A stretch of DNA of 33,145 bases, taken from a virus (lineage: Duplodnaviria > Heunggongvirae > Uroviricota > Caudoviricetes). A program made the translations under genes and the position numbers. The notes under the pieces are model-generated. The model ran no database searches. It was not told the origin of the DNA and saw only the letters and a program-made list of their open reading frames with translations. The DNA is taken from the IMG/VR virus record IMGVR_UViG_2879742664_000006. The stretch is one strand, 5' to 3'. Below, piece by piece: positions 4,999-31,415 of this stretch (within the stretch, counting starts at the first letter, position 1; each line of letters opens with the position of its first letter).

Positions 4999-6041
4999 TC
5001 AGGATGTGGGCTGGATGTCTAACAGTGCGTAAGGGTTAAAGCGGATCACCTCTTCGCCAAGCCAGTCATTGATGTGCTTCATGGCCTCCATGACGGGCAT
5101 CAGCTCGTTAATTGCGTAAACCCGCGCGGCCTTCTCCACATCACCAAACGCACTTTTTTCACCCGGCATCGCCCCCATCAGTTGCGGCGGAACGCGGTGC
5201 GCAGCCAGCACATCATCACGGGATGCCGCCTTAACATTCATGAACTCATCCTTTGCGGTGATCTGCTGGAACGGCAAAATTTGCACCCCCTCTTTGCCCC
5301 CGTTGGGCGCATGAATGAGCACGTTTTTAAACGCACCACCACCACGCGCACCCTGTAGCGTTTCTTTCAGGGAGTCCATGCTTTCGCGGTTTACCTGCGC
5401 GGCACCGATGTAGATGATGCACCCGGCGTGGGATCCGTTGTCGTAATACAGTTTTCTGAACATGTCCGCCGAATGAGACAGGCTGGCCGAGAGTAATGCG
5501 CCGAGATATTCCGGCATGCCGTAGATTTCCTGGTTAATGTCAGGATTCATCAGGTGACACACTTTGCCTGGGCGAAACTGAAACGCATCCTTGCCATCCT
5601 GCACATACCTCCATGATTCAAGATCGCTTCCGCGTCGCATGTATTTCGCCAGGGCGTGCCGTAATTTAAGCGGTTCGCCGAGCATATTGCTTCGAAGCTC
5701 AAGGAATGCGTTACCGAACACAAACCAGTCCAGCGCCAGCGCCAGCGCCGAGAAATCCTGCCGGGAAAGCAGCGGGTGCGGGATGTAGCAACCGAGCAAT
5801 ACATTGCGCTTAAAATAAAGCGCAGACTGATGCCAGGACGTTTGCCGGGCAGCTCTTGCCAGACCGTACCAGTCCACCGGGGTTTCATACCACCGCCCGT
5901 TATCAGCACAGTACATATTGTCCAGCAGGTCAGGCGATAAGGACCATCAAATGTGAATGCACTGAGCGATGATTCTTTCCTGAGCGCATCAGCGAGATCA
6001 ATGCGTGAACTCATGCGCACTTTTTTATTTTTTCTGCTCAT
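4999..6041 (-). pseudogene. Q: P2 gpQ-like portal protein, interrupted by a 1-bp frameshift near 5917-5946 as sequenced
   Basis: N-terminus MSRKNKKVRMSSRIDLADALRKESSLSAFTFDGP in one frame (track ORF 5550..6041), remainder MYCADNGRWYETPVDWYGL...RFNPYALLDIQPTS in another (4999..5916). Combined length 1043 nt is one short of a multiple of 3. Start overlaps the terminase stop (ATGA). Confidence 0.8.
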
Positions 6042-8806: not shown

Positions 8807-9858
8807 ATGAATCTGGTGATGTCAGATATTACCCGCAACAAGCTGGGTTGCTATATGGCGCAGCAGGTGTCGCTTAATAATATCCCGGTATCTGCACTGG
8901 TGTCGCGATTTACCGTGGAACCCGCGGTGCAGCAGCGTTTTGAAAACGCCTCAAAGGAAAGTACCGAATTTACGAAAAAAATAACGTGATCGGCGTGACC
9001 GACCAGAAAGGCGAAAAAATCCTCCTGGATACCACAGGACCGATTGCGCGCACGAATACCAGTTATGACGGCACAAAACGCCGTAACCCGAATAACGTGG
9101 TTGATCTGAAAAACCGCAAATATCAGTGTGAACAGGTGAACTACGACACGTTTATTTCGTATCCGCAGCTTGATGCCTGGTCGGCACACCCTGATTTTCA
9201 GTCCCGCATCAGCGCACAGATTGCCCGACAGGTGGCGCTTGACCGCATCATGATCGGTTTCAACGGCACGTCTCACGCGGATGAGTCCAACTTCAGCACC
9301 AACAAGCTGCTTCAGGACGTTAACGTGGGCTGGCTGGAGCACATCAGAACCGACGCCAGCGAACGCGTTATGAATGACGTGACGCTGACCTCCCGCAACA
9401 TGGACAACACCGTGGCGCACGCGGGTAAGTATGCGAACGCTGATGCACTGGTACAGGACGCGCGTTCATCCCTGCTAGATGAATGGCACAAGGAAGCTGA
9501 CGACCTCGTGGTGATTATGGGGCGCAACCTGTTTAACTCGCTGCGTCTGCCCGTGCTGAACAGCATCAGCGGCCAGAATCCCAATGCGGAATTACTCGCC
9601 GGGCAGCTCATCCTGTCATCGCGCACCATTGGCGGGCTGGGCGTGTTCCTTGCGCCGTTCTTCCCGGATGCAACGATGCTGATCACCTCGTTCAACAACC
9701 TGTCGATTTACTGGCAGAAAGGTTCAATGCGTCGCCTGATGAAAGACGAGCCGGAATACAACCGCATCGCCACCTACCAGTCCATCAATGACGCTTATGT
9801 CGTTGAAGACTATGGCAAGTGCGCGATGGTTACTGGCCTGAAGTTCGCCGACAGCTAA
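8807..9858 (+). pseudogene. N: P2 gpN-like major capsid protein, frameshifted in an A-run at about 8975-8986 as sequenced
   Basis: Track ORFs 8807..8989 (ends ...ESTEFTKKIT*) and 8986..9858 (...VIGVTDQKGEKILLDTTGPIA...) are both capsid-like and adjacent frames; adding one base in acgaaaaaaataacg gives continuous ...TEFTKKINVIGVTDQ.... Confidence 0.85.
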
Positions 9859-9903: not shown

Positions 9904-10650
9904 ATGATTACTCCTGCACAACAACACTGGCAGAACGTGATGGCACAGCGCGCAGGCCGGGCGAATGAAGGCGTGGACCACGCCGCGCGTACCGCGCATG
10001 AAGAGGTGCTGTATCGTCTGCGTCTGGCACAGGCCCGGCTTAAGGGCGTACAGGCCAGAAGCGCGAAAGCCGCCATCAAAAAAGAGTTGTTGCCGGATTT
10101 TTCCGGCTGGATTGAGGGAACGCTGGAGGCTGACGGCGGGCAGCAGGATGAAGTGATTGCCACGCTGATGGTGTGGGCGATTGACTGTGGCGATCTTCCG
10201 CTTGCGCTGCGTATCGGCGCGTATGTAGTCCGTCACAACCTCATCATGCCGGATAACTTTGGCCGTACTGCTGCCACGGTACTGACCGAAGAAATCTGTA
10301 ATCCGGTACTGACGCAGGCCGGGACGGATGCCGACGCGGATTTGTCCGCCTTTATCGAACCACTGGACACCCTCCGGGAGATTGTCACCGACCAGGACAT
10401 GCCGGACGAAGTGCGCGCCAAATTATGCAAAGCGTGCGCCTTTGCCCGCCGTGGCCTGAGTGATGCGGACAGCATGGCCCTGTCACTGAAGCTGCTGCGC
10501 GAAGCAATGCACCTGAACCCGAACGCAGGTGTGAAACGCGAGATTGCAACCCTTTCCCGCGCCCTGAAAAAAGCCGATTCCGCAGCCGAACCAGAAGACG
10601 CCAGCGCACAGCAGGCGCAGGACGAAAGCAGCAAAAAGCAGCAAAAGTAA
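9904..10650 (+). CDS. M: P2 gpM-like terminase small (endonuclease) subunit
   Basis: 248-aa ORF following the capsid gene, as in P2. Confidence 0.9.
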   Translation: MITPAQQHWQNVMAQRAGRANEGVDHAARTAHEEVLYRLRLAQARLKGVQARSAKAAIKKELLPDFSGWIEGTLEADGGQQDEVIATLMVWAIDCGDLPLALRIGAYVVRHNLIMPDNFGRTAATVLTEEICNPVLTQAGTDADADLSAFIEPLDTLREIVTDQDMPDEVRAKLCKACAFARRGLSDADSMALSLKLLREAMHLNPNAGVKREIATLSRALKKADSAAEPEDASAQQAQDESSKKQQK

Positions 10651-16214: not shown

Positions 16215-18200
16215 ATGAGTACCACAACACGAAAATTTAAAACCATTATCACCGATACGGGTGCAAAAAAATTAGCTCAGGTAGCCGCGCCAGATGGTAA
16301 GCCTGTCCGCCTGACTCATATGGCCGTGGGCGACGGTGGCGGCACGTTGCCCACACCAGACAGTAAGCAGACCCGTCTGGTGCATGAGGTGTGGCGACAT
16401 ACTGTTAATCGCGTCATCCTGGACGCAACACATCAGAACCGCATTATTGCGGAGCTGGTTATTCCTCCTGAAACGGGCGGATTCTGGATCCGGGAAATTG
16501 GTGTATTTGATGAGCACGGCGATTTAATCGCGGTGGGAAATACTGCCGAAAGTTACAAGCCAGCCGTTGCCGAAGGGTCCGGTCGTGCACAAACATTTCG
16601 CACCATTCTGACCGTATCCAGCACTGCCACCGTGGCGCTTACCGTGGACAACACCATGGTGATGGCCACAGTGGATTACGTGGATGACAAACTGAAAGAG
16701 CATGAACAGTCACGACGTCACCCGGACGCCTCGCTGACCGCAAAAGGCTTTGTTCAACTCAGTAGCGCCACTAACAGCGTGTCTGAAACGCAGGCTGCAA
16801 CGCCGAAAGCAGTAAAGGCCGCGTATGATCTTGCTAACGGTAAATATACTGCGCAGGATGCCAGCACGACGCGAAAAGGCCTTGTCCAGCTCAGTAGCGC
16901 CACCAACAGCACGTCTGAAACGCAGGCTGCAACGCCGAAAGCAGTAAAGGCCGCGTATGACCTTGCTAACGCAAAATATACCGCTCAGGACGCCACGACG
17001 GCACAAAAAGGGATAGTCCAGCTCAGTAGTGCCACCAACAGCACGTCTGAAACACTGGCCGCGACATCGAAAGCGGTTAAGGCGGTAATGGATGAAACGA
17101 ACAAGAAAGCGCCCTTAAACAGTCCTGCGCTGACCGGAACGCCAACAACGCCAGCTGCGCGACAGGGAACGAATAATACCCAAATCGCAAGCACGGCTTT
17201 CGTTATGGCTGCGATTGCCGCCCTTGTAGATTCGTCACCTGACGCACTGAATACGCTGAACGAGTTAGCGGCGGCGCTGGGAAACGCCCCGAATTTTGCG
17301 ACCACCATGACTAACGCGCTTGCGGGTAAGCAACCGAAAGATGCCACCCTGACGGCGCTGGCCGGGCTTGCTACTGCGGCAGACAGGTTTCCGTATTTTA
17401 CGGGGAATGATGTCGCCAGCCTGGCAACCCTGACAAAAGTCGGGCGGGATATTCTTGCGAAATCGACCGTTGCTGCCGTTATCGAATACCTCGGTTTACG
17501 AGAACTCGGCACAAGCGGGGAGAAAATACCGTTACTCAGTACAGCGAATACCTGGACCAATCGACAAACATTCAGCGGTGGCCTTTCTGGGGAACTGTCC
17601 GGCAATGCCGCTACTGCAACAAAGCTGAAAACAGCACGAAAAATTGCTGGAGTTGGTTTTGATGGTTCTAGCGATATTTCAATTAGTGCCAAAAATGTCA
17701 ATGCATTTGCACTCCGACAAACAGGTAATACTGTTAATGGTGATACATCCGTTGGATGGAATTGGGATAGTGGTGCATATAACGCCCTGATTGGTGGTGC
17801 ATCTGCATTAATTCTTCACTTTAATATAAATGCTGGTAGCTGTCCTGCCGTACAATTCCGTGTGAATTATAAAAATGGTGGCATTTCCTACAGGTCGGCT
17901 CGTGATGGTTATGGGGTTGAATTAGGTTGGTCAGATTTCTATACCACGACACGAAAACCTTCAGCGGGAGATGTTGGTGCATATACGCGGGCAGAATGTA
18001 ACTCAAGGTTTATTACAGGTATTCGCCTTGGCGGTCTGTCATCTGTTCAGACATGGAATGGTCCCGGCTGGTCTGACAGGTCAGGTTATGTCGTTACGGG
18101 TTCAGTTAACGGAAACCGTGATGAATTAATTGATACAACACAGGCAAGGCCAATTCAGTATTGCATTAATGGGACGTGGTATAACGCGGGGAGTATTTAA
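16215..18200 (+). CDS. H: Tail fibre protein (P2 gpH-like), current fusion of constant N-terminal part with variable C-terminal segment Sv
   Basis: 661 aa; three tandem 44-aa collar repeats (KGxVQLSSATNSxSETQAATPKAVKAAYDLANxKYTAQDA); conserved crossover motif ...IEYLGLRE... at the gix-like site; followed by an assembly chaperone gene. Confidence 0.9.
   Translation: MSTTTRKFKTIITDTGAKKLAQVAAPDGKPVRLTHMAVGDGGGTLPTPDSKQTRLVHEVWRHTVNRVILDATHQNRIIAELVIPPETGGFWIREIGVFDEHGDLIAVGNTAESYKPAVAEGSGRAQTFRTILTVSSTATVALTVDNTMVMATVDYVDDKLKEHEQSRRHPDASLTAKGFVQLSSATNSVSETQAATPKAVKAAYDLANGKYTAQDASTTRKGLVQLSSATNSTSETQAATPKAVKAAYDLANAKYTAQDATTAQKGIVQLSSATNSTSETLAATSKAVKAVMDETNKKAPLNSPALTGTPTTPAARQGTNNTQIASTAFVMAAIAALVDSSPDALNTLNELAAALGNAPNFATTMTNALAGKQPKDATLTALAGLATAADRFPYFTGNDVASLATLTKVGRDILAKSTVAAVIEYLGLRELGTSGEKIPLLSTANTWTNRQTFSGGLSGELSGNAATATKLKTARKIAGVGFDGSSDISISAKNVNAFALRQTGNTVNGDTSVGWNWDSGAYNALIGGASALILHFNINAGSCPAVQFRVNYKNGGISYRSARDGYGVELGWSDFYTTTRKPSAGDVGAYTRAECNSRFITGIRLGGLSSVQTWNGPGWSDRSGYVVTGSVNGNRDELIDTTQARPIQYCINGTWYNAGSI
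16743..17100. repeat. Tandem 132-bp repeats (about 2.7 copies) inside the tail fibre gene
   Basis: Near-identical DNA units beginning aaaggc(t/c)ttgt(t/c)ca(a/g)ctcagtagcgcc at 16743 and 16875, partial third from 17007. Confidence 0.7.
17479..17504. other. Left gix/cix-like crossover site of the invertible fibre segment (inside H)
   Basis: ttatcgaatacctcggtttacgagaa is the imperfect inverted complement of the site at 20158-20183 (shared core cctcggtttac); lies at the EYLGL codons. Confidence 0.7.
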
Positions 18201-18202
18201 CG

Positions 18203-18736
18203 ATGATGCACTTAAAAAACATTACTGCTGGCAACCCTAAAACAAAAGAGCAATACCAGCTAACAAAGCAATTTAACATCAAATGGCTTTATTCAGATGA
18301 TGGGAAAAACTGGTATGAGGAACAAAAGAATTTCCAGCCAGACACTTTGAAAATGGTCTATTACCATAACGGCGTTATTATTTGTATTGAAAAGGATGTT
18401 TCAGCAATTAATCCGGAAGGCGCAAGCGTCGTTGAATTACCTGATATTACAGCAAATCGCCGGGCTGATATTTCGGGGAAATGGTTGTTCAAAGATGGCG
18501 TAGTGATAAAGCGAACTTATACCGAGGAAGAGCAGAGGCAACAAGCGGAAAATGAAAAGCAAAGCCTGTTGCAACTTGTCAGGGATAAAACCCAGCTATG
18601 GGACTCACAGCTACGGCTGGGCATCATTTCCGACGAGAATAAACAAAAATTAACCGAGTGGATGCTCTATGCGCAGAAAGTCGAATCTACAGACACCTCC
18701 AGCCTGCCAGTAACGTTTCCCGAACAACCAGAATGA
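18203..18736 (+). CDS. Tail fibre assembly chaperone (Tfa; P2 gpG / Mu U-like)
   Basis: 177-aa [40 protein letters not shown]...; directly after the fibre gene; paralogous to the minus-strand copy at 18765-19293. Confidence 0.85.
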   Translation: MMHLKNITAGNPKTKEQYQLTKQFNIKWLYSDDGKNWYEEQKNFQPDTLKMVYYHNGVIICIEKDVSAINPEGASVVELPDITANRRADISGKWLFKDGVVIKRTYTEEEQRQQAENEKQSLLQLVRDKTQLWDSQLRLGIISDENKQKLTEWMLYAQKVESTDTSSLPVTFPEQPE

Positions 18737-18739
18737 GAG

Positions 18740-18766
18740 AAGGCCCGATATTGGGCCTTAATTTTT
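18740..18766. terminator. Bidirectional terminator hairpin between the two convergent chaperone genes
   Basis: aaggccc-gatatt-gggcctt perfect hairpin followed by aattttt. Confidence 0.5.
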
Positions 18767-19293
18767 ACTCAGGCTTTTGTGGCCATTCGGGATTTGCTGT
18801 ATCCACACGGCTGACCAGAACGCTGTAGCGTTCCCATGACTCCAGTCGTGTGCGTTCCTCATCCATCGCCATATTCAGCCTGACAGCGCGTTCCAGTGGC
18901 TGAATAACGCTTTCAGCTTCAGAAAGCAACGCGACCTTTTGTGATTCGGCCTGTTGTTGCTGTTCGTCTGCTGTATAAATCCGCTTAACCACAGTTCCGT
19001 CCTTAAACATCCACTTCCCTGAATCATCGGCACGACGATTGGCTGTTATATCTGGAATCTCAACGACACTAAAGCCTTCGGGATTAAGCGTTGGGGCATC
19101 TTTGGTTATGGCAACAATAATATTATTTTCGTCGTATACAATCTTTATGGTGTCGTCCTGAAAGTTATTTACTTCCTCATACCAGTTTTTACCGTCTTCG
19201 GACCATAACCAGATAACATCAAAATTCTTTGTTAGCTGATATTGTTCTTTTGTTTTTGGATTTCCGGACTTAATATTTTTTAATATGCTGCAT
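18765..19293 (-). pseudogene. Alternate tail fibre assembly chaperone (Tfa', Mu U'-like), frameshifted at codons 5-6 as sequenced
   Basis: ATG at 19293 gives MQHIKKY* then stop; the body ([37 protein letters not shown]...) is in the +1 frame; removing one A from the A6 run (plus-strand T6 at 19276-19281) gives [17 protein letters not shown]..., colinear with Tfa. Confidence 0.7.
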
Positions 19294-19296
19294 AAT

Positions 19297-20157
19297 TTAC
19301 ACCTGTGCGACGTTATACCATGTGCCATTGATGTATTTTTGTATTGGTCTGAAGATGGCTTCATCATCGCCATCTACTTCACCAATGATTCTTAATCCGG
19401 TAATTGCGTGTCCGGCTTTTTCATAACGACCACCACGCGCCATCAATTGAACAACACGCGTACCCAGGCGAACATCTTTTACATAGCGTGAATCAAAATT
19501 CCCCCAGTTGCTGGGCTGTATCTGACCGTTAACAGAAAATATTACCGAGTTATCTGTATTTCGCTGGCTATAGAAATGCCATCCTGCCTCATTGCCTAAC
19601 TCTGCAACTACTGGACGGGTTGAAGCACCCCATAAATTAAACGTTGCATTCTTTGTGGAGTTGTTGGAGCTGGATAGCGTGAATTTTTTACCATCCCCGG
19701 CCTGAATATTTTTAAAAGCAATAGCCACTCCATTCTGAAAGCGGAATACACGCTGACTATTAGCATAAACATCCAGAATACCGTCTCCATTCTGTTTAAA
19801 TCCGGTGTCATTATCACCAAGAACAATAGAGCTACCACCTAACGCATTCGTCGAACCAACTCCAAGACTGCCATTAATGACAGCATTAACAAGAATATTT
19901 AGTGCATCCCATTTCAGCGTCATCAGGTCTTTTGTTGTGGTGCTCTGGCGGCTTCTCCATTTGAAATATTCATTGCCGTTGTCGCCTGTTTCAAACCACA
20001 TGTATGAATCAGTGTCACCATCGGCATCATTTTTAAATCCAATCTTCGCCCAGTCAGTATTTCGAATCCAGGCAAGGATTGAGTCATTTTCAAAAGTAAG
20101 CCCACCGGACAAGGTATCGCCATTTTTTTGCACGGCGTTACCAGCCCTGTTTACCGT
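19297..20157 (-). CDS. Alternate tail fibre C-terminal segment (Sv'), no start of its own; expressed only after inversion
   Basis: Minus-strand frame open from the right gix site (...[23 protein letters not shown]...) to a stop at 19297; C-terminus ...[17 protein letters not shown] parallels the current H C-terminus ...RPIQYCINGTWYNAGSI. Confidence 0.75.
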
Positions 20158-20183
20158 TTCCTGTAAACCGAGGTTTTAAATAA
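20158..20183. other. Right gix/cix-like crossover site of the invertible segment
   Basis: ttcctgtaaaccgaggttttaaataa closely resembles the Mu gix consensus as I remember it; inverted relative to 17479-17504; 54 bp upstream of the invertase gene. Confidence 0.75.
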
Positions 20184-20237
20184 TGGCCGTTTCTGGCCTG
20201 CATGGCATGATTTGCGCTTTTGGACGGGAGATTCAGT

Positions 20238-20837
20238 GTGCTGATTGGCTATGTAAGGGTATCAACAAATGACCAGAATACAGACCTGCAACGAAACGCT
20301 CTTGTTTGTGCAGGATGTGAACAAATATTTGAAGATAAATTAAGCGGGACAAAGACAGACCGACCGGGATTAAAACGCGCTTTAAAGCGCCTTCAAAAAG
20401 GTGACACGCTGGTTGTCTGGAAACTGGATCGCCTCGGGCGAAGCATGAAACATCTGATTTCTCTCGTCGGGGAACTACGGGAGCGAGGGATTAATTTTCG
20501 CAGTCTGACCGACAGCATAGACACATCTTCTCCAATGGGGCGTTTTTTCTTCCACGTGATGGGTGCCCTGGCTGAAATGGAACGTGAATTAATTGTTGAA
20601 CGTACACTGGCCGGGCTGGCGGCAGCGCGCGCAAGGGGGCGCACAGGCGGACGTCGACCGAAGCTGACAAAAGAACAGCATGAGCAAATAGCAAGGCTAA
20701 TCAAAAACGGGCACGACAGAAAACAACTGGCAATAATTTACGGCATTGGCACATCGACGATTTATCGTTATCACCCTGTAGGCGATATACAGACTGAAGA
20801 AACAACCGGGCAGACTCAGGAAAATGAAAACCGCTAA
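20238..20837 (+). CDS. Serine DNA invertase of the Pin/Gin/Cin/Hin family
   Basis: MLIGYVRVSTNDQNTDLQRNALVCAGCEQIFEDKLSGTKTDRPGLKRALKRL... (catalytic Ser in VRVSTNDQ), C-terminal HTH; GTG start inferred at 20238 inside track ORF 20220..20837. Confidence 0.9.
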   Translation: MLIGYVRVSTNDQNTDLQRNALVCAGCEQIFEDKLSGTKTDRPGLKRALKRLQKGDTLVVWKLDRLGRSMKHLISLVGELRERGINFRSLTDSIDTSSPMGRFFFHVMGALAEMERELIVERTLAGLAAARARGRTGGRRPKLTKEQHEQIARLIKNGHDRKQLAIIYGIGTSTIYRYHPVGDIQTEETTGQTQENENR

Positions 20838-20858
20838 TCTGACCATTAGCGGTTTTTG
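20827..20858. terminator. Rho-independent terminator hairpin shared by invertase (+) and gpU (-)
   Basis: aaaaccgctaat-ctgacc-attagcggttttt; includes the invertase stop codon. Confidence 0.55.
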
Positions 20859-20865
20859 TGTTAAA

Positions 20866-21360
20866 TCAGAACAGCCCTTTAACTGAACTGGCCGCGCTGT
20901 TAAGAGATGATGTCACCTTATCTTTGAAGCCGGACAGCATATCACTGAACGATGAGGATTGCAGGCGCTCCCGCAAATCCTCATCACAGCGTTCAAGAGT
21001 CAGTGAAAATTCTATCTTTTTCGCCTTACCGTAGCGATCAAACTCGGAGCGGGTCGTATTCGTTTCAGTCAGGACATACATGCCGTAAATCTGCCCGACG
21101 CCATCAATCAAAGGCCAGGGTCGTCCTGTATACGCCTGCGTAGTCAGCAGCGACAGCGACACTTCGCCACCTGTAATTTCAGGATAAAGCACACCAGAAA
21201 GAACGATGCGATCATCACCTGCACCGATATACTGCCAGCTTGCTGAACGGTTAACGCGTTCATTTTTCACATGCCGCCAGCTTTTGTTTTGCTGTAACTG
21301 CTGATGCGGCAGCGTGCGCAGCTCAAAAACAAACATGCCGTAGATCATCATCATGGCCAT
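20866..21360 (-). CDS. U: P2 gpU-like tail protein
   Basis: 164-aa MAMMMIYGMFVFELRTLPHQQLQQNKSWRH...; immediately downstream of the tape measure gene on the minus strand. Confidence 0.85.
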   Translation of the reverse strand: MAMMMIYGMFVFELRTLPHQQLQQNKSWRHVKNERVNRSASWQYIGAGDDRIVLSGVLYPEITGGEVSLSLLTTQAYTGRPWPLIDGVGQIYGMYVLTETNTTRSEFDRYGKAKKIEFSLTLERCDEDLRERLQSSSFSDMLSGFKDKVTSSLNSAASSVKGLF

Positions 21361-21366
21361 GACTCC

Positions 21367-24174
21367 TCAATCTTTATCGTAAAAACAGCCACGCCCGGCA
21401 CGGGCGCGCCGTTCCATTTCTGCCCTGACCATTTCACCGACCAGTTTCGCCAGTTCGCGGGGATTCTGCGTAACAACGTTATGCAGATGAACATGAATTT
21501 CACCACCAAATCCGAAGGCAACAGGCTCCCGGTTACGGGAAGTTACAGGAACTGATGCCACTGGAGATCGTATAGCCTCCGCCACCGGGCGGGAGCTGGC
21601 CGCAACAACAGGGACCAGCGCCGGAGGCAGCGGAGCCGGAACCACGGGTGTGATATTAATTGCGGGGGCAGGCTTACTGACCTGCGCAATCTTCCGCTCC
21701 TGCCACTCCCCACGAACAGCAAGTGCTCGGGGCAGGTTTTTAAAGACAATATCGCCGGGGCCAATGCGTTTTTTCGTCTCCTCAACCAGCTTACCTGTGT
21801 TATCAGCAATTTTGCTGAGTCTGCGCAGCGTACCGGTATTGCTGTCTGTGAGCGGTTTATTGTCTTTGGGGTTATCACCTCCGGTGCCATTGCCATTTTC
21901 CACAGGCTTCGGCGGATTGATTTTCGCCAGATCCCCCTGAAGCAAGGCAACCTTGTCCTGAAGAATGGCCGCACGCTGTGCGTCTTCGATTTTCTTGCGC
22001 GCCCTTTCCGCTTCATCCGGAAGCACACCAAGCTTTTCAAGTATCCACGCCAGCGTATCCAGCAACATTTTTGCAGGTGTCAGAACAAGTTGTAACGCAC
22101 CGCCAAGAACGTTACCGAATATCTCGCCAGCACTGGTACATTTATCCAGAGTTTCCTTGCTGGACTCCATCGGTGACAGCAGCGATTTAAACCAGTTAAA
22201 CACCTGGCTGATCCCACTCCCGATTGCGTCAAAAACAGGACCAAACCGTTCAAAGGTTTCGCGCAACGGGGTCAGCCTTTCCATAATCCCGCTGAACACC
22301 CCGGCAAAAAATGCCCTGATGGGATCCCAGTATTTCCAGATAAGAACGGCAGCTCCGGCAAGCGCAGCCACGATAAGACCAACCGGACTGAACAACGCCC
22401 CGATAGCGCCTCCCAGTAAAGAAACGGAACCCGTCACCATTCCCCATAGTGCTGGCAGAACCCTGACAGCATTCATTGATCCGGTCAGGAGGGAAAAACC
22501 AAGACGCAGTTTTGCCAGCGGGCCAGCAAGCACACCAATAGCCAGCGACAACGAGCCAACCGTTGCAGTCATTGCCAGCAATGCACCGCCTGCAATCAGT
22601 AGCTGGCGCGTCAGTGCGGGATGGGCCTGCGCCAGCGCCGTCACCTTTGATACCACACGCGTGAGCCACTGCGTGACAGAACGCAGCGGACCGTCAATCA
22701 GATCTGCAATGCGGATGCGCAACCCTTCCCATGCACTGCTGAGTGATTTCAGATCGCCGTCAAGGTTGTTGGCCATAACCTTTGCCGTGCGTTCAGCCTC
22801 ACCGCGCGCGCCTTCAAGTTCTTTTCTCAGTTTGGGTAAGGAGCCGTCACCTGCCGCATCAACGAGGGCCATAAATGATGTGAAAGCCTCTTCTCCGGCA
22901 ATGTCCTTAAAGAACGATACCCGGTCAACTTCCCCGTATTTGCGGGTAGCTTTATAAAGGTCAGCCAGCACATCCTCCATCGGGCGCATTTTGCCCCCGG
23001 CATCCGAGACAGACACGCCAAGCTCTTTCAGCGCCTCTGCTGCCGCCTTTGGCGGTGATGCCAGACGAGCCAGGCTGGCACGCATTGCCGTACCAGCATC
23101 ACTCCCCCTGATACCCATATTCGCCAGCACGCCCGCCATCGCTGCGGCCTGCTCCAGAGATATTCCCAGCTTACCCGCCACCGGACCTGCATATTTCATG
23201 GTTTCACCCAGTGCGCGAAGGTCAGTGTTGGTACGGGTAAACGCTGCGGTGAGTGTGTCGCCGACCCGGTCCATCTGGTCAGCAGAAAGACCGAACTGCG
23301 TCAGAATATTTGAGCCAATATCCGCCGTCTCACCGAGGTCCATACCGCCAGCCGTTGCCATGCTCAGTACGCCAGGGAGCGCAGCCTGAATGGCCTGTGG
23401 TGTAAAGCCAGCCATTGCAAGAAATGCCTGTCCACTGGCGGCATCGCCTGCGGTGAACTGCGTTTCAGAGCCAAGTTTTAACGCCTGCTCACGCAGCGCC
23501 TTAAACTGCGGGCTGTTCTGGTCGATTCGCGTCAGTGCCTGAACGCGGGACATCTCTTTGCCGAACCCGATCGCAGGCTGCAAAAAACGCCCGGCAGCAT
23601 AGCCGCCCGCCGCTGCCGCACCAATTGCCAGCGCACCACCTGTTTTCAGTTTTCCCGCTGTTTCCTGCGCGCGCGAATACCGCTCACGCGCCCGTGTTAC
23701 ACGCGCAAGCGCCTGCCGTTCGCGTTCAAGCTGGTTGTTGTACTGTTCGGTGCGTCTGATGGCCTGCTGGATGGTGTTATCGCTGCCTGTCAGGGAAATG
23801 CCGTGGCGTTTCAGCTCTCCGCCAAGCTCCCGCATTTTCTGAATTTCCCGTGTGCGCGATTCATTCAGGCGTTCAAGCCGGGTGCTTAACTGCTGCATCA
23901 GCTTTTGTTGTTTTTCGCTGAGCACTGTACCCGTGCGTTGTAACTGATTAAGGGCGTTAAGCTGGCGTCGTGCTTTCACGATGCCAGCATCCGCTTTACT
24001 GACAGCGTCACGGGCGCGCTCAAATGATCGCGCCTGACGCTCGAGATTTTTGATCGCCCCCTGCGTTCGCTGGATGGAGTCACCAAACTGCCCCATCAGG
24101 CGGCGGGCGTTTTCGGCAGGCCGGGTCAGCCTGTCAACGGCGCTGAAAGCGACCCGGATATCAAGAGTCTTCAT
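21367..24174 (-). CDS. T: Tail tape measure protein (P2 gpT-like)
   Basis: ~935-aa ORF, coiled-coil N-terminal third, Gly/Ala-rich hydrophobic middle; start placed at the Met of MKTLDIRV (RBS ggga); track ORF extends to 24210. Confidence 0.9.
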   Translation of the reverse strand: MKTLDIRVAFSAVDRLTRPAENARRLMGQFGDSIQRTQGAIKNLERQARSFERARDAVSKADAGIVKARRQLNALNQLQRTGTVLSEKQQKLMQQLSTRLERLNESRTREIQKMRELGGELKRHGISLTGSDNTIQQAIRRTEQYNNQLERERQALARVTRARERYSRAQETAGKLKTGGALAIGAAAAGGYAAGRFLQPAIGFGKEMSRVQALTRIDQNSPQFKALREQALKLGSETQFTAGDAASGQAFLAMAGFTPQAIQAALPGVLSMATAGGMDLGETADIGSNILTQFGLSADQMDRVGDTLTAAFTRTNTDLRALGETMKYAGPVAGKLGISLEQAAAMAGVLANMGIRGSDAGTAMRASLARLASPPKAAAEALKELGVSVSDAGGKMRPMEDVLADLYKATRKYGEVDRVSFFKDIAGEEAFTSFMALVDAAGDGSLPKLRKELEGARGEAERTAKVMANNLDGDLKSLSSAWEGLRIRIADLIDGPLRSVTQWLTRVVSKVTALAQAHPALTRQLLIAGGALLAMTATVGSLSLAIGVLAGPLAKLRLGFSLLTGSMNAVRVLPALWGMVTGSVSLLGGAIGALFSPVGLIVAALAGAAVLIWKYWDPIRAFFAGVFSGIMERLTPLRETFERFGPVFDAIGSGISQVFNWFKSLLSPMESSKETLDKCTSAGEIFGNVLGGALQLVLTPAKMLLDTLAWILEKLGVLPDEAERARKKIEDAQRAAILQDKVALLQGDLAKINPPKPVENGNGTGGDNPKDNKPLTDSNTGTLRRLSKIADNTGKLVEETKKRIGPGDIVFKNLPRALAVRGEWQERKIAQVSKPAPAINITPVVPAPLPPALVPVVAASSRPVAEAIRSPVASVPVTSRNREPVAFGFGGEIHVHLHNVVTQNPRELAKLVGEMVRAEMERRARAGRGCFYDKD

Positions 24175-24211
24175 TGTCTGCATTCCCGCTACGAAGTGCC
24201 GCCCGCTCACG

Positions 24212-24699
24212 TCAGCTAACCACTTCGCCGGGCGTCATCATGAAGATTTCGGCGGGCGACCAGTTAAAAATGGCGGCAATATCCGCCACCAGATCTTCGA
24301 TGTGCTCAAAGCACACCAGGGTGATTACGCTGCCGTCTCCTGCACGCTCTTCGCGCCAGAGTCTGGCTCGCTCATAAAATTTACAGCCACAGCGCACAAC
24401 TGAATAAAATCGCGTGACGACATTTTTTTAATCATCACTTCATCCAGTCGTGGCGAGGTCACGCGAGGCAACAGCGTGAACATGGTATCCGCTTTCAGAT
24501 TCAGCACATCAGACAGCGACAGACCACGCAGGGATCCAGCCTGCTCAATAGCCCCGGTGATCTCCACATACGTGATTTTTTCGCCACCACGCTCAATTGG
24601 TCGGGTCAGTTTTACGCCACGTTCGACAGCCATATCCTCAACTGCCGTCACATTATCCGCCACGGTGTTATTCCGGGTTTCAGTATCGATGTCTTTCAT
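24212..24699 (-). CDS. gpE+E'-like frameshift product (programmed -1 frameshift, putative)
   Basis: A -1 frame (...KFYERARLWREERAGDGSVITL...PGEVVS*) is open from a slippery-like heptamer A_AAT_TTT (plus-strand 24375-24381) in E through to a stop at 24212, 2 nt before the T start, the conserved chaperone arrangement. Confidence 0.55.
24325..24699 (-). CDS. E: Tail assembly chaperone gpE-like
   Basis: 124-aa ORF with strong RBS aaggaga 7 nt before ATG 24699; lies between tail tube and tape measure genes. Confidence 0.75.
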   Translation of the reverse strand: MKDIDTETRNNTVADNVTAVEDMAVERGVKLTRPIERGGEKITYVEITGAIEQAGSLRGLSLSDVLNLKADTMFTLLPRVTSPRLDEVMIKKMSSRDFIQLCAVAVNFMSEPDSGAKSVQETAA

Positions 24700-24754
24700 C
24701 TGTTGTCTCCTTTTCAGTCAGAGGCGACGCACTGCGCCGCCAGCATATTACTTA

Positions 24755-25265
24755 TCAGCCAAGCCCAAGCGCGGAACGGATGCGATCGGGCACAATGTCC
24801 TTGCCGTCCTTCCGGTAAATGAAGTTCAGCAGGTCAATCTCCCACAACGGGCGATCGTTAACACTCAGCTTGTAGTAGGTGTTTTAATGGCGTAAGTGTG
24901 TGATGTGGCTTCGCCCTGTTTGGCTTCCCCCATATCAATTTCCGTCACACGTCCGCGCATTTCGACTTCATACAGGTCGCTTTCTGCATCGGTGTAGTAT
25001 TCACCCGCAAAACGCAGCAGCGTGCCGTCAATCGTGCCGCCATACTTAAGGAACAGCTCACGAACTGCGCCCCCATGACAAAGCTCGCATCAAGCGCGGA
25101 GTCGTCCAGACCGAGATCAATACTTACCGCACCCATCATGCCACCACCCCGGTAGCTGTCGGTTTTGCGCGTCAGCTTAGGCAGAGTGACGGACGTCACA
25201 TTACCCACTTCGTTTTCACCATCCACAAACAGCGTAAAAAAGCGAAGATGTTTTGGCACAGCCAT
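24755..25265 (-). pseudogene. FII: P2 gpFII-like tail tube protein with two 1-bp frameshifts as sequenced
   Basis: N-terminal part in track ORF 24945..25265 (MAVPKHLRFFTLFVDGENEVGNVTSVTLPKLTRKTDSYRGGG...); tube-like sequence continues in two other frames (...GGAVRELFLKYGGTIDGTLLRFAGEYY..., then ...YYKLSVNDRPLWEIDLLNFIYRKDGKDIVPDRIRSALGLG*). Frame changes at a C5 run (25070-25074) and a T4 run (24883-24886). Confidence 0.8.
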
Positions 25266-26449
25266 CAGGCACCTCCCAGCACCGCAAATGCGGGTTCAAA
25301 GTATTCATCAGTAAACGTCTGGTAAAGCTCCATGTCTTCCAGTGGCGGAACGGGCGTATATTTGTAGCGAATACGCACACGTCCCTGACGTAAATCCGTG
25401 GTGCTGTTATCCACCACGTCATACCAGCACTCCGCGCCAATCAGTTTCCCGGCAGTCACCAGTGAATCCAGTTTTGCCCTGATGGCACTGATAACATCCT
25501 TCACATTCGCAGGCGTCAGTGGACTGTCGATGGTTTCAAACTGCGCTTCCGCAATTGAATCAGCCAGCACCTGTGCGGTTCGGGTATACACCTCAAAGAT
25601 GTAGGCGTTCGTTTCCGGTGTGCGGTTACCCCAGAAGCGGAACCCGTTGCGACGAATAATGGTCGTGATTTCTTTGTTGTTGAGGCTGTTGGCATCGCTG
25701 TCTTCGGCCTGCAACGACCAGAACACATGCCTCGACATCCCCAGCACATTTTTAACCGGAACGTTGGACAGCGATTTGTGCCATCCCTGTTCATGGTCAA
25801 TGTACGCACGAAGGCCGCACGCATAGGCAGGCGCGGGGAACGTTTCGTTTTTGCCATTTTTCGGGTTGTAGGCGATGAAGTCCGGCCATAAGAGCATCAC
25901 CTCACGTTCGTTGAATTTCTGGCGGTAGGTAATTGCCTCGGCCATCGTGTTACAGCCATGACATGAGGCATACACAAACGCGCGCAGTTTATCTGCAATC
26001 ACGCACAGGGATTTTGTTACCGCCTCCGTGTCCAGCTCCGGCGCGGCCAGAATACGCGGACGGTATCCGATGCTTTCATCCTGCTCTGCAACAAGCAGCG
26101 CATACATCCCCGTATAGCTGCCGTCATCCTCAGAACCACCGATAACCAGTTGATCCTGCGTCTTTCCGTCTTCTTCTTTGTGTTCAGCCACGCGAACGAC
26201 GATCACCTTTGTGCTCACCTGGTCTGCGATGGCCTTAAGCGCACGATAAAGCGTCCCCGTTGTCCCGCATTTTCCCAGCACGTCATTGACGCGGGTCAGC
26301 AGTGTGGGCTTGTTCAGCGGGAACAGCTTCGCGTCCGCATCATCCGCCGTTGCCACGATACCGATAACGCTGGAATCAACATCGTTAATCGCTGTTACCA
26401 GGTCGGTATTCTCCGTAACACGGGCACCATGAAAACGAGTTTCACTCAT
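25265..26449 (-). CDS. FI: P2 gpFI-like tail sheath protein
   Basis: 394-aa intact ORF; stop overlaps the tail tube start. Confidence 0.9.
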   Translation of the reverse strand: MSETRFHGARVTENTDLVTAINDVDSSVIGIVATADDADAKLFPLNKPTLLTRVNDVLGKCGTTGTLYRALKAIADQVSTKVIVVRVAEHKEEDGKTQDQLVIGGSEDDGSYTGMYALLVAEQDESIGYRPRILAAPELDTEAVTKSLCVIADKLRAFVYASCHGCNTMAEAITYRQKFNEREVMLLWPDFIAYNPKNGKNETFPAPAYACGLRAYIDHEQGWHKSLSNVPVKNVLGMSRHVFWSLQAEDSDANSLNNKEITTIIRRNGFRFWGNRTPETNAYIFEVYTRTAQVLADSIAEAQFETIDSPLTPANVKDVISAIRAKLDSLVTAGKLIGAECWYDVVDNSTTDLRQGRVRIRYKYTPVPPLEDMELYQTFTDEYFEPAFAVLGGA

Positions 26450-26606: not shown

Positions 26607-27716
26607 ATGACCGACACCACCATGCAATTGCTCAGTCAGGGCACGGCCCCCGTGAAAATGCCGGATTTTGATATTCTCTCGGAGGGTAAAACGCTGTCAG
26701 GCGTGGCGGAGCGCCTGATGAGCCTGTAACTGACCGACAACCGGGGATTTGAGGCGGACCAGCTCACCATCACGCTGGATGATGCGGATGGTCAGTTGCA
26801 GCTACCGCCACGGGGCGCGCGTCTGACGGTTCTCATTGGCTGGAAAGGGGAACCGCTGACAGAAAAAGGCACTTACATTGTTGATGAAATCGCTCACGAA
26901 GGACCGCCGGACAGGCTGACTGTTTCAGCCAGAAGCGCAGATTTTCGGGATGAATTTAACGTTAAACGTGAGGTGTCCTGGCATGATGTGACCGTTGAGC
27001 GTGTGGTATCCGCCATCACTCATCGGTACGGTCTGAAACCGCAAATCAGCGAAATGCTGATGGATATCGAAATCGACCACGCCGACCAGACCGAAGAAAG
27101 CGACATGTCCTTTCTTACGCGCATGGCGGAAATGCTGGGAGCAATCGCCACGGTAAAAAGCGGCAATCTGTTATTCATCATGCCAGGTGGTGGCGTGAAC
27201 GCACAGGGGCAGCCGTTGCCCTCGTTCGCCATTACACGCAGCAGCGGCGATCGCCATCAGTTCCGCATTGCTGACCGCGAGGCGTATACGGGGGTACGCG
27301 CCTACTGGCTTGATCTTAATTACGGGAAAAAGAAAAAAGTCAGCGTGAAACGCCGCAAACCGCCAAAACCCAAAAAGGAGAAAAGCAGCAGTCGGGAAGG
27401 CGACTATATGGAAGGTGCGGAAGGCAACGTGTTTGTGTTACGCAAGACTTATCAGAACGAGCAGGCAGCAAGACGCGCAGCGGCGGCAAAGTGGCAGCAG
27501 CTACAACGCGGAGCCGCATCATTCTCCATCACGCTGGCGCGTGGTCGTGCAGAACTCTATCCCGAAATGCATGGCACAGTGACAGGCTTTAAAAGCGAGA
27601 TTGATTATCAGGACTGGACTATTGCAAAAGCCGAGCACACCATTGATAACAGCGGCTTTACCACGCAGCTTGAACTTGAAGCAAAAATCCCGGAATGGAT
27701 AGCAGAAACAGAATAA
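26607..27716 (+). pseudogene. D: P2 gpD-like tail protein with an in-frame TAA stop at codon 41 (26727-26729)
   Basis: ATG 26607 with RBS agggaggg; track ORFs 26475..26729 and 26796..27716 are in the same frame, separated only by TAA; D-like sequence reads continuously across it (...GVAERLMSL*LTDNRGFEADQLTITLDDADGQLQLPPRGARLTVLIGWKGEPL...). Confidence 0.8.
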
Positions 27717-27964
27717 ATCTCTTAAAAATATTATTTTTGAGATGTGCTTCTACACTGACAGTAAGAACAAAAGATAATGTATCAGCCCACTAGATGTCAG
27801 AGGTTGGGGCATCAACCAGATGCTAACAATAATACGGATGTTTTTCCCACATGACAGAGGAAGTCAAGTATAATCTTCACAGTCCATCCCGTCCAAGGGA
27901 ATATGACTCAATAGTAAAAGTTCCAGTTTAGTTAGTAGACCCACACTTTATAGAAGAGTAATTC

Positions 27965-30900
27965 ATGATTGGACAATTTTTAAGTGCAACAGAGATTTTA
28001 GCAAAGAACTATGTTCGTAATAAAATGGTTAAAAATCCATTTTATTCGAATTTAAAATGGAATTTTATTGAAAAAAACATCATAAGATTAACATCCTCAC
28101 CGGTTAAATCAGTACTTTGCATATCAGCTTTTTCATTTGTACTACTTTATGTTGGATATTTAAACGAATTATTTATAAAAAATAATCTTTTACATTATTT
28201 CCCGTTTAGGCATTCATTAACCGAATGGCAAACAACCATTTTAAGTGGCCAATTGACAATTATTGGTATTGTATACCCCCTTGTTATAGGTTTAGTAAGT
28301 GTCTTATTCCAAAAAAAGGCAGATAGAAAAATAGCCCAAACTGCTTATCAGCGTTACTCAGGATTCATGCTTGCTGGACTCAGCGGGCTTTTCTTATCAG
28401 GATTTATACTTCTCAGTGTACTAATTAAAACTGTCTTTGGAAGTTATCTTTATGGTATAGCTTGTCTAATCAGCATATTATGGCTTTTGATAAACATAGT
28501 TCTTTCTATTTGGTTCTTTATCGTGAGTCTTGAAATTCTTGATGATGTAAAACGGCAAATAATTATAAAGCGATACATTGCCTTCGAAATAGTAATGCCC
28601 CATATTTGTAACAAAATATCAGCCAAGCTTAGGTTATACCCTATCTATCAAAAACATAACTATTCAAATTTAGAAATCACGCAAGCCGATTACAAAGGAG
28701 AATACATATCTGTGGCTAGCAGTTATTCTAAGGAAGATGAGTTAAGTTTATATCACCGTCCTTTTCAACTTACTCTTAATCTTATTAATTACCAACTAAA
28801 AAAGAAGAATCATTTTGCGTCATTTGTCATTGGTGATAATCGTACAAAAGAAACAGAATCCACGGGTAAGATACTTTTTAGCGTTAAAAATATCAAACCA
28901 GACAGCTTATTAATAAAAATACTTAAGCAATGTTTTTATAGGGCTCCGATTAAAGGAGGAGATTTTTCCGTAAGTCTTACAATGCAGGCTATAACAGCAG
29001 ATACGTATATGTATCTGCGGGATTCTGATCTCATTAGTTTTGACAATGCTATCTCTGCATTAATTAATAACTTTAATAATCTCTGCGATTTGTATTTTTT
29101 TCAAGATGATAATACCAACAATAACTTCTTACTGATCACTACAGAATTATTTGAACGGAGTTTTCAATATGAGTTTTCAGATGAAGTTTATAAAATATCA
29201 AATAATTCCATGGATAAAATTAATCTTTCTGAAAGATTTTTTGAATTATGTCTTTGGAGCGGAGTGCGTATTATCAATAATAGAAAACATCTTATCAGCA
29301 ATGAACTTTGTATCTATATGGGAATTACTCGTTCACAATGGTCAATATTAACAGAATGGTTCCGAAACAACCAATCACTCTTAAATGCCTCGCTTCGTTC
29401 ACGTTATAATCGTATATTAAGAACCTATATCACTGTTTGGGAGCAATATCAAGAAAGCATAAACTTTCGTTTCTGCAATACAGAGAATTCAGATTTATTT
29501 GAATTATTTTGCAAAACGCAACTACAAGAACTTCCATCGATGATTATTGATGCAACACAGACTCGCGATCCTTCTACTATTGATACAGCCGTCGATCTTA
29601 TTAACCGATGGCAGCACTCAATGAATATTGACAGCCATTCGGTAGAAAAATACAGTTACAAAGGCCAGCTTTTTAACCCGGGTTTTTTCATATCCAAAAA
29701 ACTAAACTTCAATTCAGACAGAGAGTGGTTCAATATTGCCATCATAAATGCGTTGACTGACATGCGTATATGCACATGTCTTTATCTGACATCAAGAATC
29801 AATACTTCTGACAAACTAATGACACATTACATTAAACTTATTTTAGAGGGTAAACTTATTGACCAAACCGGTGGATATGAAACTCCCACTGAAGAAATTG
29901 ATAATGCAAGCCAACTAATCAAGATATTAATTAGAATCTGCCTGTGGACATGGTCTGAAAATATGGAGCACAATGGGTGGATGAATAGTTTAGCAAGGCG
30001 TTTACGTGACTATGATAAAACAGACATGGTGATGGGCAGAGTTTACAGTAATGTTTTTGACTGTGGATTTATTGATATGGAACAATCATGGGTTCAGCTA
30101 TTATTAATTTTTTCTAACAAGAACGATAGCGTATCAAAAGAAATAAAAGAAGCAATAGAAAACAACTATATAACATATCGTGAGAAGCAACGACTCATTG
30201 GAGTATTATCAAAAATTTGTAACTCCATCGAATACACTAAAATCAAGCTGACTTTAACATTGGACGATCTCCAAACAAAAAAAGAAAACTTAAGAAAGTT
30301 GCTTCAAGAGCATATTAACATGCTAAAGAAAGATCTTGATATGAGACTTCAGGATGCTGCCATAGATGTACATCGACTAGATAGCACTGCACGTAAAACA
30401 TCAGAACATCTTCGTAAACGCATCAAGAAAACGCTCCCTCTTTCACTTTTCAAATCTATTGATTTTAAGCAGGCTAGCGATTGTTTCACAAAACATAAGA
30501 TATCTATTAAGATAGATAAAGAACCGTATGCCGAAGGAATAGAATCCATCCCTTATATCAATGAAGGTGATATTCAAGCAGACTTAATTCTCAAGGACAT
30601 CCAGAGAATAATACTTTCAAATTTATTTAGCACTGGCTGTTCGCAACATACCGTAATAGAAGATTTCAATATGTTGATTGATCACATAAAATCATCTGCT
30701 GACTTGGCTGGCAAACTGGTTCTTGTGATGAGTAAAGAGATCTTTCAGCAATATAATCGTATGCTTTTCGATAATCCCAACCTCAGAGAACTAATGAGAA
30801 AAAATGATGATGGCTCTATGAACATAACTACTGAATCCGGTACCCGTAAGGTTTACTTCTTACCATTTGTTAATCAACCATTTTCTCTTGTGGTAAAGGA

Positions 30901-31084
30901 TAACTACTTCACTAAATTAATTATTAGAGAATATGATAATAATAAGTTAGTAAATGTCACTTCAGAGAATATCAAAAGTGACTCAGATAAATTCAAGCTA
31001 ACTCTTAACTATGAGTTGAATATAGTATTTGAAGGAAACGCTGATTTAAAAATAGCTCACTCGCAAAGAGTGACATCAGAATAA
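27965..31084 (+). CDS. Large membrane-anchored protein of unknown function (1039 aa), AT-rich cargo gene
   Basis: Single uninterrupted ORF, visibly AT-rich (about 17 G+C in the first 60 nt) against GC-rich phage genes; N-terminal hydrophobic helices (residues ~50-190), then ~850 aa with no recognisable motif; possible -10 box TATAAT at 27869-27874. Confidence 0.8.
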   Translation: MIGQFLSATEILAKNYVRNKMVKNPFYSNLKWNFIEKNIIRLTSSPVKSVLCISAFSFVLLYVGYLNELFIKNNLLHYFPFRHSLTEWQTTILSGQLTIIGIVYPLVIGLVSVLFQKKADRKIAQTAYQRYSGFMLAGLSGLFLSGFILLSVLIKTVFGSYLYGIACLISILWLLINIVLSIWFFIVSLEILDDVKRQIIIKRYIAFEIVMPHICNKISAKLRLYPIYQKHNYSNLEITQADYKGEYISVASSYSKEDELSLYHRPFQLTLNLINYQLKKKNHFASFVIGDNRTKETESTGKILFSVKNIKPDSLLIKILKQCFYRAPIKGGDFSVSLTMQAITADTYMYLRDSDLISFDNAISALINNFNNLCDLYFFQDDNTNNNFLLITTELFERSFQYEFSDEVYKISNNSMDKINLSERFFELCLWSGVRIINNRKHLISNELCIYMGITRSQWSILTEWFRNNQSLLNASLRSRYNRILRTYITVWEQYQESINFRFCNTENSDLFELFCKTQLQELPSMIIDATQTRDPSTIDTAVDLINRWQHSMNIDSHSVEKYSYKGQLFNPGFFISKKLNFNSDREWFNIAIINALTDMRICTCLYLTSRINTSDKLMTHYIKLILEGKLIDQTGGYETPTEEIDNASQLIKILIRICLWTWSENMEHNGWMNSLARRLRDYDKTDMVMGRVYSNVFDCGFIDMEQSWVQLLLIFSNKNDSVSKEIKEAIENNYITYREKQRLIGVLSKICNSIEYTKIKLTLTLDDLQTKKENLRKLLQEHINMLKKDLDMRLQDAAIDVHRLDSTARKTSEHLRKRIKKTLPLSLFKSIDFKQASDCFTKHKISIKIDKEPYAEGIESIPYINEGDIQADLILKDIQRIILSNLFSTGCSQHTVIEDFNMLIDHIKSSADLAGKLVLVMSKEIFQQYNRMLFDNPNLRELMRKNDDGSMNITTESGTRKVYFLPFVNQPFSLVVKDNYFTKLIIREYDNNKLVNVTSENIKSDSDKFKLTLNYELNIVFEGNADLKIAHSQRVTSE

Positions 31085-31219: not shown

Positions 31220-31415
31220 ATGTTCCGTTGTCCGCTTTGTGGCGCATCTGCCCGTATCCGCACCAGTCGTCCGGAAAATGATTCAAACACCGTGAGACAA
31301 AAGTATTATCAGTGTAACAATCTAGAATGCGGCGTATGTTTCTCAACACTGGAAGCCTTCCACAAATTCACTTCAAAGCACGCCTCCCCCATTCACTCAT
31401 CAGAGGGCATCCCGT
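31220..31415 (+). pseudogene. ogr: ogr-like zinc-finger late-gene activator, 3' end split off by IS2 (remaining codons at 32746-32823)
   Basis: MFRCPLCGASARIRTSRPENDSNTVRQKYYQCNNLECGVCF... (CxxC...CxxxxC); the IS2 terminal repeat begins at 31416 inside the frame, which resumes after the IS2 left end as ...PWHELPTSHRGNNQMSLPLPQN*. Confidence 0.8.

Follow-up and report, generated by a model that had tools for sequence, protein, structure and literature searches.

Several tail-fibre inversion switches of the Din type have been described. In the G segment of phage Mu, which is near-identical in D108 and SfMu, a constant fibre part is followed by a recombination site, Sv-U, U'-Sv', a second site and an outward-pointing invertase gene. 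The C segment of P1 and P7 works with Cin and cix sites, and the P segment of the Escherichia coli K-12 element e14 with PinE. In Shigella boydii, an invertible B segment and its invertase gene pinB have reportedly been described by Tominaga, Ikemizu and Enomoto in 1991 (J Bacteriol 173:4079; GenBank D00660). Here we analyse a locus of this kind in a 33,145-bp stretch of tailed-phage DNA (IMG/VR record IMGVR_UViG_2879742664_000006), the whole of which we call the window. We are confident that it holds a Din-family site-specific inversion system of the Mu G-segment or S. boydii B-segment (pinB) type, set in the tail-fibre operon of a P2-like prophage. It is a classical Din-type tail-fibre inversion switch and as such already known, since the S. 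boydii B segment with pinB has been described and fibre inversions in P2-like prophages have been reported and measured (PMC4272514). The parts of the system are as follows:

16215-18200, plus strand: gene H, the expressed fibre (661 aa; Pfam Phage_tail_fib and Phage_fiber_2)
16215-17489, plus strand: constant N-terminal part of H (425 codons), outside the segment and common to the 661-aa and 716-aa fibres
17479-17504, plus strand: left recombination site, bixL-like, inside H (TTATCGAATACC-TC-GGTTTACGAGAA, outer to inner; core TC at 17491-17492)
17490-18200, plus strand: expressed variable fibre C-terminus (236 codons), with a tip of Mu S'/P1 Sv' type by comparison of its last 165 aa
17493-20169, both strands: invertible segment, 2677 bp between the two core dinucleotides
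18203-18736, plus strand: expressed tail-fibre assembly chaperone, U' type (Pfam Caudo_TAP)
18765-19293, minus strand: silent alternate chaperone, U type (Pfam Caudo_TAP), with a +1 frameshift at codon 4
19297-20169, minus strand: silent alternate fibre C-terminus (291 codons), diverged Mu S/P1 S type (Pfam Gp34_trimer)
20158-20183, minus strand: right recombination site, bixR/gix-like (TTATTTAAAACC-TC-GGTTTACAGGAA; core GA on the plus strand at 20170-20171)
20238-20837, plus strand: serine DNA invertase of the Din family, Gin/PinB type (199 aa from a GTG), pointing away from the segment
20256-20327 (invertase nt 19-90), plus strand: putative recombinational enhancer, a homologue that matches Mu gin at 72 of 72 positions

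The closest described counterpart is the B segment of S. boydii, which shares its host lineage with the locus of the window; the two may be one locus or alleles of it. The 716-aa fibre that the other orientation encodes comes from sources of the Shigella lineage, the recombinant left site obtained by inverting the segment in silico is identical to bixL at 26 of 26 positions, and the right site has the same GA core. In addition, a close homologue of the 716-aa fibre is annotated as 'Bcv gene product' in E. coli IHE3034. The sites of the two loci are not fully alike: TTCCTGTAAACC is the inner half of both bixL and bixR as published, whereas one inner half in the window is TTCTCGTAAACC, which forms a P1-like LGLRE junction, and the outer half of the right site differs by one base.

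Over about 2.4 kb, the DNA of the segment is 88-92% identical to that of Mu, D108, SfMu, P1, P7 and D6. The likeness to the Mu G segment goes beyond gene order: identity is about 91% for the DNA of 17702-19296, 93% for that of the right site with the 5' half of the invertase gene, and about 96.5% for the chaperones; the enhancer stretch is the same letter for letter, and so is the core dinucleotide. The locus departs from Mu in its carrier, a P2-like prophage and not a transposable Mu-like phage, in the P2 H-like constant part of its fibre, in a silent S-type tip with no more than 47% identity to Mu S(G+), and in its inner half-sites, which differ from each other. The P1/P7 C segment resembles the locus in its sites (the left site matches cixR at 23 of 26 positions) and in having an enhancer at the same place in the recombinase gene; however, the cix core is AA/TT and that of the window GA/TC, Cin is 72% identical to the window invertase, and in P1 cin stands at the other end of a 4.2-kb segment. 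The e14 P segment with PinE and the segments of the P2-like prophages of enteropathogenic E. coli (EPEC) E2348/69 are also Din-type switches of the tail-fibre C-terminus that flip in culture; indeed, paired-end sequencing revealed constant flipping of the tail-fibre segment of e14 and of those carried by two P2-like prophages in EPEC E2348/69 (PMC4272514). In contrast to the window, those segments have pix-type sites (AAACCTTGGTTTGGGAGAA, core AA/TT) and other variable fibre and chaperone genes.

Sites, fibre genes and invertase

A repeat finder run on the window returned the inverted repeat pair 17475-17504 / 20158-20187, and the two 26-bp sites lie within it. An earlier note on this DNA had placed two inverted sites with a common core at 17479-17504 and 20158-20183 and had suggested that they be aligned to gix, cix and hix. 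Coordinates, core and orientation were all borne out; the alignment, made with the published Din-family sites in Table 3 of PMC3241671, gave 21-25 identities out of 26 with bix, gix, cix and hix, and bix fitted best of all. The left site as it stands matches bixL at 24 of 26 positions and gix at 22 of 26, and its outer half, GGTATTCGATAA, is the same as the outer half of bixL. The right site matches bixR at 25 of 26 positions, the one-base difference lying in its outer half, and gix at 24 of 26. Compared with each other, left and right site are identical at 21 of 26 positions with the central TC dinucleotide in common, and their half-sites show dyad symmetry at 9 of 12 and 8 of 12 positions. 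The pair thus has the form of Din-family sites, namely, two inverted 26-bp sites with 12-bp imperfectly symmetric half-sites and an identical 2-bp core. The longest uninterrupted identity of both sites, the 12-mer ACCTCGGTTTAC, occurs twice in the 33 kb, once per strand, against a chance expectation of about 0.06 occurrences; one of 100 shuffles gave two. A degenerate gix pattern, run to look for a shufflon-like layout with multiple inversions as in EPEC, detected no third gix-like site in the window. The inner half-sites differ (ACGAGAA versus ACAGGAA) because the inner flanks, 17505-17700 and 20100-20157, are of different origin. At the expressed junction the protein, LGLRELGTSG, resembles P1 Sv (80% over 65 aa), and at the silent junction of the segment it resembles Mu S.

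With the left site inside H, each orientation gives the constant N-terminus of 425 codons a tip of its own. The native H reads in frame through the left site (...AVIEYLGLRELGTSG... / ...EYLGLRELGTSG...), and inversion of 17493-20169 in silico yields an uninterrupted H of 716 aa; both fusion open reading frames are intact. In-frame passage through the crossover in both orientations (EYLGLRE versus GLQE) had been predicted and holds, with 661 aa in the native form and 716 aa in the inverted form. The same is true of the gene layout that had been read from the letters: a fibre C-terminus and its chaperone on the plus strand, facing an alternate pair on the minus strand whose fibre part has no start of its own. 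The last 165 aa of the expressed tip are 88% identical to Mu S' and 87% identical to P1 Sv'; for the expressed chaperone, identity amounts to 96.6% with Mu U' and 94.4% with P1 U'. On the minus strand, the silent fibre C-terminus lacks an ATG, and the sole candidate for a start in its frame, an internal GVG, lies at 20133. This C-terminus shares 55% identity with P1 S(C+) and 98% with the fibre that E. coli NU14 expresses. From residue 4 onward, the silent chaperone shares 96.5% identity with Mu U. Within the constant part, H has three tandem 132-nt repeats at 16742-17137, of which the copies are 87% and 61% identical to the first and which encode Phage_fiber_2 repeats. The constant part of P1 gene S carries an annotated 132-bp 'repeated element a1'.

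The gene directly after the segment had been proposed to encode an invertase of the Pin/Gin family. The GTG at 20238, and not the TTG at 20220, is the likely start, giving 199 aa as annotated in relatives. Pfam finds Resolvase (1.5e-50) and HTH_7 (4.4e-13) in the product, and its best solved relatives in the PDB are the Gin structures 4m6f and 3uj3 (E-value 3e-100). Over its whole length the invertase shares 80% identity with Gin, 78% with PinE and 72% with Cin, and over residues 1-120 it differs from Gin at two positions, K39R and V120I. R7, S9, D64, R65 and R68 are invariant in an alignment with Gin, Cin and the invertase of Escherichia phage 503458. The PDB match, the near-identity to Gin over residues 1-120 and the catalytic residues place the enzyme in the Gin family, and its N-terminal catalytic domain with Ser9 and C-terminal helix-turn-helix domain are those of a Din-family recombinase. 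Both S9 and M114 have been described for Gin, in which mutation of M114 leads to Fis-independent activity (PMC3575834); M114 is wild type in the window invertase. The gene is intact, and the protein is identical to that of E. coli UTI89 (WP_000905061.1).

The invertase is a mosaic, with an N-terminal part that is nearly Gin and a helix-turn-helix region about 50% identical to both Gin and Hin. This DNA-binding domain (22 of 45 positions identical to Gin in the helix-turn-helix region) and a C-terminus 16 aa longer than that of Gin, ending ...PVGDIQTEETTGQTQENENR, set it apart from Mu Gin. Derivation of the DNA-binding domain from Hin was considered and dropped, as 24 of 45 identities with Hin against 22 of 45 with Gin are not decisive.

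The 5' part of the invertase gene had been named as the place to look for a Fis-dependent enhancer, and a predicted homologue is found there. The first 200 nt of the gene are identical to Mu gin at 197 of 200 positions, and 20256-20327 matches, at 55 of 72 positions, the P1 stretch annotated as 'enhancer of Cin-mediated C-segment inversion'. Two Fis-consensus-like 15-mers, at 20260-20274 (nt 23) and 20308-20322 (nt 71), lie 48 bp apart and are kept in gin, cin and pinE; about 97 bp separate the right site from the centre of the first. A Fis consensus and a spacing rule of 48 bp are general background to such enhancers. At the level of sequence, the stretch therefore qualifies as a putative enhancer of the Din family, and by analogy with Mu, P1 and Hin its function would depend on Fis.

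We propose that the system works in the following manner. Dimers of the invertase would bind both 26-bp sites and form a synapse with the Fis-bound enhancer in the first ~90 nt of the invertase gene. Ser9-mediated cuts at the identical 2-bp core of both sites, a 180-degree rotation and religation would then leave the 2677-bp segment inverted. The orientation present in the window would produce the S'-type tip on a fibre of 661 aa, and the other orientation the S-type tip on a fibre of 716 aa, each with the matching chaperone gene downstream. By the Mu, P1 and Hin paradigm, the switch may be active at present in the sequenced strain, and the two tips may differ in receptor specificity.

Inversion among near-identical genomes

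The segment has inverted at exactly these sites among near-identical genomes. The 9,401-bp loci of UTI89 and NU14 are identical except for 2,662 bp between the sites, which are an exact reverse complement; the breakpoints fall in the gix-type core, and the inner half-sites have changed places in the way expected of a Gin-type crossover. A literature search for a description of this UTI89/NU14 inversion found nothing relevant. A synthetic inverted left junction has counterparts in real E. coli genomes that agree with it at every position over 401 bp. When a match is required to cover at least 80% of the junction query, the flipped form is present in 358 E. coli genomes and the native form in 329. 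At the protein level, the exact native 661-aa H is found in 72 blocks of the assembly collection and the exact predicted 716-aa H in 181, including the complete chromosome CP000036.1, which we take to be an S. boydii record. The source names given for the 716-aa protein are 'tail fiber protein [Shigella]', '[Shigella boydii]' and '[Shigella flexneri]'.

The comparison can be narrowed to the lineage of the window itself. Flipped in silico, the window aligns to the Shigella locus L014 over 14,151 bp with 0 mismatches and one 1-nt gap, and the native-orientation locus L008 differs from the window by the same single gap. The lineage of the window thus exists in both orientations, and comparison among genomes shows both orientations of a Din-type segment with breakpoints in the core.

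The sites are inverted repeats, and RecA-dependent homologous recombination between them, in place of site-specific recombination, would be another way to turn the segment over. We give this explanation almost no credence. The uninterrupted identity of the two sites is 12 bp within 21 of 26 positions, far under the usual need of RecA; the UTI89 and NU14 breakpoints lie exactly in the gix-type core with exchange of the inner half-sites; and a dedicated invertase and an enhancer homologue adjoin the segment.

A second alternative is that of a frozen relic, in which inversion has ceased in this lineage, and assemblies differ in orientation through old events or the action of other enzymes. This would be in keeping with the decay of the prophage (see below), with the frameshifted invertase of some sibling assemblies and with the lack of a detected invertase promoter in a simple scan. 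However, the window invertase is intact and identical to that of UTI89, and the sites and the enhancer homologue are intact as well. Moreover, L008 and L014 are nearly identical over 14 kb yet opposite in orientation, which argues for very recent flips. In addition, the segment of e14, itself a cryptic prophage, is found in culture in both orientations at about 50:50 through flipping (PMC4272514). We therefore regard a frozen relic as quite unlikely.

Our own reading of a Din-family inversion system has to be weighed against five points. First, the evidence for inversion is a comparison among genomes, not reads of the source culture. Second, a simple scan of 17300-21000 found no sigma-70-like promoter for the invertase. 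Third, a run of four A in place of five at 20395 (about codon 53) frameshifts the invertase in several near-identical Shigella assemblies, of which L008 and L011 have the native orientation and L014 and L017 the flipped one. Fourth, relative to UTI89, NU14 and the prophage of E. coli ETEC4088, the minus-strand chaperone has an extra base at 19284, in codon 4. Fifth, a host-range phenotype is unlikely to be expressed from this copy alone. As assemblies with a frameshifted invertase occur both ways round, orientation differences are not proof that the resident invertase is active in every strain. The run of four A may be a homopolymer sequencing error or recurrent slippage, or it may be real and the flipping done by another invertase in trans.

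The last possibility can be widened. If flipping goes on in a prophage unable to form particles, including sub-lineages with a frameshifted invertase of their own (L008, native; L014 and L017, flipped), a second Din invertase elsewhere in the Shigella genome might act in trans, or the module might be kept for a host function such as the flipping of other loci, comparable to Fin of Fels-2 and flagellar phase variation in Salmonella. We consider this unlikely. Our preferred explanation is still a Din-family system with its own invertase, sites and enhancer.

The carrier prophage and the output of the switch

The carrier is a P2-like (Peduoviridae, Xuanwuvirus-like) prophage of the S. boydii/flexneri lineage. 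P2-family V, W, J, I, U, T and FI genes flank the switch, and Pfam identifies Phage_P2_GpU, Phage_GPO, Phage_cap_P2, Phage_GPD, sheath, Phage_base_V, GPW_gp25, Baseplate_J and Tail_P2_I in the tail and capsid genes. The nearest phage record, the prophage-derived Escherichia phage 503458 (Peduoviridae, Xuanwuvirus), is 96.5% identical over the segment and annotates the same five cassette genes, including a 'DNA invertase'. The Pfam hits and this Peduoviridae relative confirm the P2-like tail module that the earlier note had given as the setting.

The prophage is in decay, as a gene-by-gene tblastn comparison with the ETEC4088 prophage, 99.5-99.7% identical, makes clear. The portal gene Q (region 4560-6041) is split across frames by a duplication of 6 bp at 5730 together with the loss of 10 bp at 5928, and the capsid gene N (8807-9858) by a 1-nt deletion at 8979. 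The small terminase gene M (9904-10650) is truncated by a 10-bp duplication at 10625, and the tail tube gene FII (24758-25265) lies in three frames owing to 1-nt deletions at 24882 and 25070. The late activator gene ogr (31220-32811) is interrupted by a 1331-bp insertion at 31415-32746 that resembles an insertion sequence. To the left of 4560, the window does not align to the ETEC4088 prophage, which has genes for a replication endonuclease, a Dam methylase and an AAA ATPase upstream of its portal gene; the window has two transposase open reading frames of the IS3-family type (rve, HTH_21) there, at 379-1269 and 2097-2936. Head genes are broken, but the majority of the tail and baseplate genes, namely R, S, V, W, J, I, H, U, T, E and FI, are intact. 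With portal, capsid, tail tube and ogr disrupted and the small terminase truncated, no host-range phenotype is expected from this copy.

The alternate chaperone gene of the switch is damaged as well. Owing to the extra base at 19284, the ATG of the silent chaperone (19293-19291), which stands behind a good AGGTG, opens a reading frame of only seven codons (MQHIKKY) before a stop. The remainder is in another frame, whose upstream ATGs lie only inside the fibre gene and have no Shine-Dalgarno sequence. A search of 5,426 complete E. coli genomes did not find the insertion (best match 240/241), and all six Shigella-lineage loci checked (L008, L010 and L014-L017) have it, in both orientations. A sequencing error private to the window is rejected as its cause, as six of six loci carry it; the frameshift is thus a real, fixed mutation that is older than some of the flips. 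Since it runs through the lineage, the U-type half of the two fibre and chaperone sets is probably not functional.

The earlier note was therefore right about the kind of system, its family and its architecture, and it went too far with the word complete. Layout and fibre fusions are undamaged in both orientations, but the alternate chaperone is frameshifted and the carrier prophage is defective.

These findings bear on the possibility of a fully functional live switch, that is, an inducible P2-like phage that makes two types of virion with different receptor specificities, as Mu does in G(+) and G(-). All five cassette components are present with both fibre fusions intact, related Xuanwuvirus records have been deposited as phages, and intact relatives (UTI89, ETEC4088) have complete chaperones. 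Against this stand the splitting of Q, N and FII, the truncated small terminase, the insertion in ogr, the region to the left of 4560, which carries IS3-family transposases and does not align to the early or replication genes that ETEC4088 has there, and the frameshift of the silent chaperone. A live switch in this sense is very unlikely.

The uneven decay, with head genes broken and most tail and baseplate genes intact, would also suit a tailocin. Here the remnant would have been domesticated as a phage-tail bacteriocin and the switch would diversify its killing spectrum, as in carotovoricin Er; invertible fibres do occur in tailocins, as cited in PMC4272514. However, FII, which is essential for a contractile tail, lies in three frames, and ogr is interrupted, so that a tailocin is a most improbable reading of this locus.

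Considering that the alternate chaperone is frameshifted and that portal, capsid, tail tube and ogr have lost their integrity, the output of the switch in this copy is probably vestigial. The locus, like e14, is most aptly viewed as an inversion module that has stayed competent inside a cryptic prophage, and not as a working host-range device. Its discovery value is small: the form was reportedly sequenced from S. boydii in 1991, and 'DNA invertase' is annotated in related RefSeq phage records. It does explain a 2.7-kb inversion between assemblies of near-identical Shigella and E. coli strains, and the 'partial' or 'hypothetical' tail-fibre calls that annotation pipelines make beside an invertase. 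It is also a clean example of a switch that has outlived the phage it served.

Minor features of the window

Two terminator-like hairpins accompany the switch:

18740-18759, plus strand: G+C-rich hairpin in the middle of the segment, where it separates the two convergent chaperone genes, with an 8-pair stem followed by AATTTTTACT
20827-20856, both strands: 12-bp perfect inverted repeat, a bidirectional terminator-like hairpin between the invertase gene and the convergent gpU gene

The genes U, T, E, FII and FI (20866-26449, minus strand) oppose V-W-J-I-H-G and converge on the invertase, and the same arrangement is found in Xuanwuvirus relatives. In P2, these genes are co-oriented with V-W-J-I-H-G. 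A tRNA scan found no tRNA in the window. Further to the right (region 26796-31084), gpD, at 306 aa, seems to be truncated at its N-terminus, as the match to the Pfam profile begins at position 64. It is followed by a 1039-aa open reading frame with no Pfam match, called 'MFS transporter' by RefSeq in the ETEC4088 relative; this is a cargo-like insertion between D and ogr that is common to the relatives.

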